64,000 bases of DNA from Mobula birostris (taxonomy: Eukaryota). The notes beneath the pieces were generated by a model that had not been told where the DNA came from, made no database searches, and saw only the letters and a list, made by a program, of their open reading frames with translations. Below, one piece after another: positions 6,180 to 7,470 of this stretch. The translations under genes and the position numbers were made by a program. The stretch is from NCBI RefSeq assembly GCF_030028105.1, contig NC_092370.1, positions 40,310,643 through 40,374,642 of the forward strand, given 5' to 3'. Positions within the stretch are counted from its first letter, which is position 1, and every line of letters starts with the position of its first letter.

Positions 6180-6215
6180 AGTCGACGTTTCGGGCCGGAA
6201 TCCTTCGTCAGGACT
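6180..6215 (-). ncRNA. Minimal type I hammerhead ribozyme motif in PLE pLTR
   Basis: AGTC-CTGACGA-AGGATTCCGGCCC-GAAAC-GTC-GACT: intact core, AGTC/GACT stem I, one mismatch in stem II. Confidence 0.75.
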
Positions 6216-6363
6216 GAAGAATGAAAGATGGGGAAGGATTTGAAGAATGCTTGTAGCGTCAGTTGATAGGCCAGTAATTTGAAAGACAAAGGGGTGGGGG
6301 GGGGGGAACATTGACATCATAGCCCTGAAAACAATGGGTGGTAGAAGGAGGAGGCGGAACCAT

Positions 6364-7227
6364 GACTCTCATAACTACCTCGACTATACCTCTTCCCACC
6401 CCGCCACATGCAAAAATGCTATTCCCTATTCCCATTTCCTCCATCTCCGCCGCATCTGCTCAGAGGATGAGGCTTTCCATTCCAGGACATCTCAAATAGC
6501 GTCTTTCTTTAAGGATCGTGGTTTCCCTTCTACCATCATCAATGATACCCTCACCTGCATCTCCTCCATTTCCCGCACTTCGGCCCTCACCCCATCCTCC
6601 CTTCACCACAACAGGGACAGAGTTCCCCTTGTCCTCACCTACCACCCCACCAGCCTCTGGATCTAGCACATTATCCTCCGCAACTTCCGCCACCTTCAAC
6701 AGGACCCCACCACTAAGCACATCTTTCCCTCTCCACCCCTCTCCGCTTTCCGCAGAGATCAGTCCCTCCGCAACTCCCTTATCCACACGTCTACCCCCAC
6801 TGATCTCCCACCCGGCACTTATCCCTGTAAGCGTAAGTGCTACACCTGTCCCTATACCTCATCTCTTGCAACCATTCAGGGCCCCAAACAGTCCTTCCAG
6901 GTGAGACAACACTTCACTTGTGAGTCTGTTGGGGTCATCTATTGCATCCGGTGCTCCCAGTGCGGCCTCCTCTACATTAGTGAAACCCGACACAGATTAG
7001 GGGACCGCTTCGTCGAGCACCTCCACTCTGTCCGCCGCAACAGACAGGATCTCTCGGTAGCCACCCACTTCAACCCTGCTTCCCATTCCCATTCAGATAT
7101 GTCCATACATGGCCTCCCCTATTGCCATGATGAGGCTAAGCTCAGGTTGGAGGAGCAACACCTCATATACCGTATAGGTAGTCTCCAGCCCCTTGGTATG
7201 AACATAGAATTCTCCAACTTCCGGTAA
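6364..7227 (+). pseudogene. PLE ORF remnant: RT C-terminus, CKRKCYTC linker, GIY-YIG endonuclease
   Basis: Single frame with one TAG at 6664-6666. YLDYTSSHP, RRICS, VIYCIRCSQCGLLYISET..RFVEH..VATHFN..EQHLIYRIGSLQPLGMN. Confidence 0.9.
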
Positions 7228-7434
7228 TTCCCTCCCCCTCCCTTCCTCTATCCCTATTTCATTCTACCCCCTCCCCCAGCTCCCTCATGGTTCCGCCTCC
7301 TTCTTCTACTACCCATTGATTTCAGGGCTATGACGTCAATGCTTCCCCTCCCCCACTCATTTGTCTTTTAAATTACTGGTCTTTCAACTGACGCTACAAG
7401 CATTCTTCACGTCCTTCCCCATCTTTCATTCTTC

Positions 7435-7470
7435 AGTCCTGGCGAAGGGTTCTGGCCCGAAACGTCGACT
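7435..7470 (+). ncRNA. Minimal type I hammerhead ribozyme motif (core mutated)
   Basis: AGTC-CTGGCGA-AGGGTTCTGGCCC-GAAAC-GTC-GACT: A>G in the CUGA core, stem II intact. Confidence 0.65.

Follow-up and report, generated by a model that had tools for sequence, protein, structure and literature searches.

Minimal hammerhead ribozymes in the pseudo-LTRs (pLTRs) of Penelope-like elements (PLEs) are the subject of the 2014 paper by Cervera and De la Pena (PMC4209133). The motifs described there have a U-rich leader, a short helix I, CUGANGA followed by one base, a G-C-closed helix II, and GAAA. They have a palindromic 15.2-16.2 and no loop III, and they are located in the pLTR. The elements that carry them are mostly single truncated copies, and opposite-strand pairs also occur. 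The same paper describes dimer formation through an ACGU palindrome, and the published dimers cleave weakly. According to the accessible part of Craig et al. 2021 (PMC8557442), EN+ PLEs have an inverted 5'-truncated pLTR and an optional tail of 30-40 bp, and the role of the PLE hammerhead is called unclear. In the same part of that source, Neptune-type EN+ PLEs comprise a C-terminal GIY-YIG endonuclease, a CX2-5CxxC linker, and CCHH. Nematis shares the linker finger with Neptune, whereas the Penelope/Poseidon clade lacks it. The vertebrate PLE groups are Neptune and Poseidon in the accessible text of a preprint.

The Anolis Poseidon element PAc (Frangieh et al. 2024, PMC11167929), so far as the available portion of that paper goes, has a hammerhead that cleaves only with the element protein and is dispensable for insertion in vitro. 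This hammerhead lies upstream of two reverse-transcription starts, which give short and tailed ends; the targets are AT-rich, and insertion proceeds from uncleaved RNA. Animal non-LTR retrozymes contain a type I hammerhead derived from PLE pLTRs and form head-to-tail tandem units, and the accessible part of their description (bioRxiv 10.64898/2026.07.22.740005) reports hammerhead retrozymes in the only chondrichthyan sampled.

The window analysed here is the whole 64-kb stretch of Mobula birostris DNA (contig NC_092370.1, positions 40,310,643 to 40,374,642). It has a GC content of 40% and contains many LINE remnants. The repeated motifs in it are very probably decayed minimal type I hammerheads in the pLTR of a high-copy, likely Neptune-type PLE family. 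In active ancestors they likely cleaved after GUC, as a dimer or aided by protein, and the copies present here are predicted to be inactive. They are ordinary transposon remnants; the arrangement has been known since 2014, and the rays are an added lineage. Cartilaginous fish were not seen among the motifs in the accessible part of Fig. S3 and Table S1 of PMC4209133. A literature search, with most subscription journals outside its reach, found no paper on ray PLE hammerheads. The window adds one more lineage, the rays, to those with minimal hammerheads in PLE ends.

On the sense strand, helix I consists of AGUC/GACU (4 bp), followed by the core CUGANGA, an extra A, and helix II of GGGU/GCCC with a 4-nt loop. 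GAAA, CG, and UC come after helix II; 15.1-16.1 forms the palindrome ACGU, and loop III is absent. The minimal type I anatomy proposed in the initial annotation holds, and it matches the consensus line of Fig. S3 in PMC4209133. Four features named as unforced in that paper are also present. The U-rich leader, the extra base, and the pLTR location are shared with the published motifs, as are the single truncated copies and opposite-strand pairs. The listed motifs of Acropora Neptune and of Crassostrea are built in the same way, and the 4-bp helix II of the ray is at the short end of the published range. The five stem II loops quoted earlier (TCCG, TCTG, CTCA, CACT, and TTCA) are correct, and CUUG (twice) and GUCA also occur. 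The core and the flanking AGTC/GACT had been described as largely kept. This is true of AGTC, found in 8/9 full copies, but GACT is found in only 5/9, and all 12 core positions are intact in 4/9, with 10-11 intact in the remaining five. None of the nine copies has both the core and all 10 pairs intact. The extra base after A9 is A in 8/9, and the 10.1-11.1 pair is G-C in 6/9 and G-U in one. Both focal arms and a partial copy at 36079 have the ACGU palindrome, and three others have AUAU or AUGU; the helix III palindrome is broken in 4/9 copies.

All nine full copies lie where the initial annotation had placed them, with the approximate 18760-18797 refined to 18762-18797, and the partial copy reported near 36077(+) is present. 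Seven partial arms occur in the window besides these nine. The motif at 6180..6215(-) has a core of 12/12 and one A.C mismatch in helix II, while the motif at 7435..7470(+) keeps 10/10 pairs and has the core change A6>G. The defects of these two focal copies are complementary, as had been claimed, with A at 10.3 opposite C in the left one and A6>G in the right one. The base that restores the G-C pair at 6201 makes up 96% of the depth in the contigs of run X1. The decayed motif at 8759..8794(-) belongs to a 5'-truncated pLTR at about 8695-9040 with a short 3' end, and has three broken pairs. At 17502..17537(+), the copy starts just 5' of helix I and has a long tail; three of its pairs are broken, the one closing helix I among them, and helix III is disrupted. 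The old decayed motif at 18762..18797(-) contains U4>A, G12>A, and an A-U pair at 10.3-11.3, and its copy begins at helix I and ends in a long tail. The motif at 30392..30427(-) has G12>A and lies in a second inverted-type unit, in which an RT fragment (+) ends near 30690. The motif at 32294..32329(-) has a core of 12/12 and a broken 10.1-11.1 pair, and its pLTR is joined to an endonuclease fragment at 32536-32592. The motif at 34954..34988(-) contains A6>C, lacks one base, and lies behind an endonuclease remnant at 35242-35526. The motif at 50792..50827(-) contains G8>U, G12>A, and three broken pairs.

A profile was built from the nine full copies and searched against the window at E<=1, with the reversed window as control. 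The window gives 20 matches. They comprise the nine seeds, which match by construction, seven further matches at E<=0.002 (36076+, 37001-, 37075+, 43995-, 51425+, 63418-, and an 8022- remnant), and four weak ones (E 0.4-0.9), which were disregarded. The reversed window gives one match (E 0.84). The remnant at 8022-8065(-) is a weak match to the 36-nt block downstream of the motif (E 0.0003). A tail-only piece at 63501-63545(+) was found by eye; with this piece included and the 8022-8065 remnant excluded, the number of arms is 16. The bare pattern CTGANGA..GAAAC is not significant in the window, with three matches (one unrelated) against 0.96 expected. A descriptor needing both helices matches once, at 6211- (the copy at 6180-6215), against a mean of 0.15 matches on dinucleotide shuffles, and its strict form (4-bp helix I, 2-nt link) matches 0/100 shuffles. 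The Rfam hammerhead families have no match at the gathering score in the window, and at E<=10 in 5900-9100 only two unrelated chance matches and no hammerhead were obtained. The monomer folds are unremarkable (z -1.0 to +0.4), and the three-helix fold is absent from all of them. Both the missing Rfam match and the missing three-helix fold are expected for a motif that lacks a stable helix III.

The reference for counting changes was the majority base of each column, except in three columns, where it was chosen by hand. Of the 57 changes in 324 cells, eight CpG columns account for 31, mostly C>T or G>A (23). In the remaining columns, the core has 4/90 changes, the stems 10/126, and the loop, N7, and extra base 12/36. 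Since variation is concentrated in the loop and N7 while the core and stems are spared, neutral decay alone is insufficient, and this contrast is the strongest argument that the fold was selected in active lineages. Pairing is kept in 84% of cells, compared with 18-39% when the partners are slid. Covariation in the stems, which had been proposed as a check, is not above shuffles by any measure in the nine decayed copies, and the motif is not refuted by this result. Two-sided pair changes number two, against 1.3 in shuffles, with 199/500 shuffles as high, and double CpG decay could account for one of them. The test is weak because dead copies decay neutrally and the CpG columns hold more than half of the changes.

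The segment may have been conserved for another reason, as an internal promoter, an ORF start, or a protein-binding site, with the hammerhead a dead relic even in active copies. When the focal subfamily is compared with five other copies, the identity of the motif is 0.76, that of the upstream segments 0.61 and 0.48, and that of the linker 0.42. The 36-nt block downstream of the motif has an identity of 0.77 in the same comparison, and conservation alone thus does not single out the ribozyme. This block (7481-7516(+) and equivalents) folds into a 5-bp hairpin, in which one pair has changed on both sides, from U-A to C-G, in the focal subfamily. Ribozyme mutants of the anole element, whose ORF begins within the hammerhead, still insert normally (PMC11167929). 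Against this, variation is concentrated in loop II and N7 and spares the core and stems, as expected of a folded hammerhead, the motif has every feature of the published consensus, and the anole motif cleaves once protein is added. The relic explanation is accordingly improbable, and a hammerhead that was functional in active lineages is the preferred reading.

The focal unit contains the motifs at 6180 and 7435. Its limits had been set at 6127-7523, and these differ from what was found: the inverted arms cover 6090-6365 and 7285-7560 (276 nt, 93%), and the inserted unit probably spans 5958-7558. The proposed Penelope-like origin holds, as the unit consists of an inverted pLTR, a remnant of the RT C-terminus and GIY-YIG endonuclease, and a direct pLTR. 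The candidate 5-bp target-site duplication TTATT lies at 5953..5957(+), abutting position 5957, where the multi-copy cover begins, and its right copy lies at 7559..7563(+). TTATT flanks the whole unit, and as 5 bp of AT-rich sequence it could be due to chance. The left arm at 6125..6365(-) is an inverted 5'-truncated pLTR and joins the ORF remnant through a shared 3-nt TGA. The 5'-truncated ORF at 6364..7227(+) contains the RT C-terminal part, a CX3CxxC linker (CKRKCYTC, residues 155-162), the GIY-YIG endonuclease, and CCHH, of which C197, H219, and H235 are invariant and C200 is present in 9/10 alignment rows. It has one in-frame stop at 6664-6666, and YIG reads YIS; positions 6664 and 6979 differ from most matching contigs. 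The 3' pLTR occupies 7228..7525(+), with the right arm from 7285, and the direct motif lies 208 nt past the ORF stop. The block downstream of the motif holds an ATG that could start the ORF.

Among 95 protein matches of similar length, the nearest are from Hypanus (a stingray, 79%) and Mobula (77%). Longer homologues carry RVT_1 and GIY-YIG (24 matches) in a collinear alignment, and full-length homologues at 39-47% carry PF00078, several also PF01541. A direct Pfam scan of the two ORF pieces gives no match. The RT core is absent from the window. The linker finger indicates either Neptune or Nematis, and since the vertebrate groups in the preprint's accessible text are Neptune and Poseidon, the element is likely of Neptune type. 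The C-terminal endonuclease, the linker, CCHH, the inverted 5'-truncated pLTR, and the optional tail (about 36 nt in the ray) are all similar to the Neptune-type EN+ PLEs in the accessible part of PMC8557442. In contrast, the focal unit adds 167 nt of a second repeat family. PAc belongs to a clade without the linker finger, whereas the ray element has one.

The two focal motifs run in opposite directions within the 276-bp inverted repeat, and a dimer between them is not expected. In transcripts that span both arms, a 276-bp duplex is predicted in which the 7435 copy is paired along its whole length. Because the focal motifs are on opposite strands, and the 7435 copy is mutated in its core and predicted to be fully paired, no activity is expected here. 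Of the transitions between the focal arms, 13/15 give G.U pairs in the plus-strand hairpin (p 0.007). Arm differences are found upstream of the motif in 14/19 cases, with fewer from the motif onward. ADAR disfavours an A preceded by G. Seven polarised A>G changes occur in or beside the arms and all of them follow a G, for which reason ADAR editing of the hairpin was rejected as the cause of the arm differences. The TT shared by the arm ends was dropped as a proof of a common template because the right-hand TT also starts the candidate target duplication.

The second multi-copy family is represented by a piece at 5958..6124(-). Two contig records span 5957-6121/6123, and one of them has unmatched sequence beyond. 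The depth of this piece falls to about 200 at 6049-6056. It contains a TATA-like TATAAATA at 6122-6115 and the 5' half-core CTGATGA-A-GATGG at 6083-6071, a candidate hammerhead; the place of the 3' half-core is rearranged in the 5958-6124 copy by an 8-nt duplication. A 33-nt extension at 7526..7558(+), 3' of the right arm, matches the start of the second-family piece. The composite unit arose either by 3' transduction, with two start points used in copying a chimeric RNA, or by insertion into a resident palindrome. It may be a case in which the hammerhead-bearing end of one PLE family was carried off by another.

The ends of the 14 non-focal arms fall into two classes about 36 nt apart, eight long and six short. 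Besides the focal unit, three more head-to-head units are found at 30.3-30.7, 37.0-37.2, and 63.4-63.5 kb, and the two short head-to-head pairs each have one short and one long arm. Several subfamilies had been proposed, and this is supported: over 336 nt, the copies labelled A and G are only 72.6% alike in their endonuclease DNA, which indicates at least two subfamilies. A short copy at 36079..36180(+) lies in a LINE RT remnant between the 8-bp duplications 36071-36078 and 36181-36188, and starts 5-7 nt before the scissile bond. The head-to-head short arms at 36993..37178, with one short end and one long tail, are joined at the helix III/scissile-bond palindrome at 37065-37079; palindromes at inverted PLE junctions were already noted in the accessible part of PMC3846280. 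The short copy at 43998..44073(-) is flanked by the 8-bp duplications 43990-43997 and 44074-44081, and its 5' end is at, or <=3 nt from, the scissile bond. An old partial copy at 51425..51545(+) starts in helix II and has a long tail, and the head-to-head arms at 63418..63545 stop short of the hammerhead.

In an active ancestor, two or more motifs would be present in a tandem transcript; they could pair through ACGU and cleave after GUC, either as a dimer or with an element protein. The element protein would then nick AT-rich DNA, and reverse transcription would start at either of two points downstream of the motif, about 36 nt apart. Early stops of reverse transcription would produce short copies, and the head-to-head joining of two cDNAs would produce the inverted units, four of which are found. 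The motif would have been selected only while the lineage transposed, with decay since then, mostly at CpG. Copy formation by nicking, reverse transcription, and cDNA joining is what the structures and the cited papers point to. The two start points giving short and tailed ends, the AT-rich targets, and insertion from uncleaved RNA would be similar to PAc, as judged for the ray from its sequence and for PAc from the available portion of its description.

The short copies might also represent a separate non-autonomous SINE or retrozyme family and not truncated PLEs. Several copies are only 70-140 nt long, two begin at the helix I boundary, and animal retrozymes derive from pLTRs (accessible part of bioRxiv 10.64898/2026.07.22.740005). 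Such a family is highly improbable: the copies begin at scattered positions, from the ORF to past the motif, and four of them are attached to remnants of RT or endonuclease coding sequence. No head-to-tail tandem units are found in the window; the ray copies are dispersed or head to head, in contrast to the units of the animal retrozymes. Truncated PLE copies remain the preferred reading.

The 5' ends of 4/16 arms, at three loci (36079, 37065-37079, and about 44073), fall in the interval from -7 to +1 around the predicted scissile bond. Under an exponential model with offsets set by hand, and with the head-to-head pair counted once, the chance of such a cluster is 0.004-0.011 if the site is fixed beforehand and 0.24-0.69 for any 8-nt window. 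The 5' ends of truncated copies may thus pile up at the scissile bond as a ribozyme footprint, with one end possibly exact and three a few bases beyond it in the helix III palindrome, but this reading is doubtful and the cluster is a lead only. Three of the four arms near the bond run past it, which indicates that their templates were uncut and is in line with the dead-relic explanation. If the cluster holds throughout the family, with its many thousands of copies, ray genomes would record where reverse transcription meets a folded, possibly dimeric hammerhead, and ends at the bond compared with ends past it would measure the frequency of PLE template cleavage in vivo. Two further arms (17502 and 18797) begin at the helix I boundary.

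The host gene is CYP7B1, with 98% identity to the Mobula birostris protein over the exon searched. Exons 2-5 lie on the plus strand at 41086-41219, about 47140-47746, 49126-49341, and 61215-61418. A hydrophobic filter and tblastn found no exon 1 (residues 1-25 of the Mobula protein) in the window. With exon 2 beginning at 41086 and no exon 1 found before it, positions 1-41085 are probably intron 1, which would hence be longer than 41 kb. The intronic setting assumed in the initial annotation is supported in this indirect way, and the PLE motif copies likely sit inside the ray CYP7B1 gene. Seven of the nine full motifs are opposite to the host sense strand; at p 0.18, an orientation bias against that strand was dropped.

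One or more copies could be host-adopted intronic ribozymes that cut the CYP7B1 pre-mRNA, in keeping with their position in or just upstream of CYP7B1 introns and with the 2/9 full motifs in the host sense strand. Both host-sense copies are broken, however, the 7435 copy by A6>G and the 17502 copy by loss of the closing pair of helix I and by its helix III. The 7435 copy is also predicted to be buried in the duplex described above, and no same-strand partner for a dimer is nearby. Host adoption is thus very unlikely, and decayed transposon hammerheads are the preferred reading for these copies too.

The PLE family is very abundant. In run X1, 53,490 contig pieces are matched over 1.4 kb, and run X5 gives 63,302 pieces; contigs were matched at 80% likeness, and summed depth is not equal to copy number. 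Summed depth is about ten times as high in the bin that holds the motif as in the neighbouring pLTR bin upstream. The match stops at 6180, the outer edge of helix I, in 173 (X1) and 228 (X5) contigs. Abundance and subfamilies together make the family useful material, in which covariation could be tested properly and 5' ends could be mapped across the genome relative to the cleavage site.

A protein-based scan of metagenomes for the element gives no loci. The stem-free motif pattern occurs 0 times in viral contigs, once in prokaryote genomes, and five times in metagenomes; these six matches were rejected because neither the family profile nor the ORF matched. Two further patterns give no match in either of the two collections searched. 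The zebra-shark read-through protein P0001 has last 13 residues that are compatible with the motif (1/119 proteins scanned, at the protein level only), hinting from this C-terminal peptide that sharks may carry a hammerhead motif in the same place. Ray gene models whose names refer to a kinase domain (P0025), a chitinase domain (P0033), and a mucin isoform (P0035) match the PLE protein at 71-82%, which suggests that transposon sequence was absorbed into these models.
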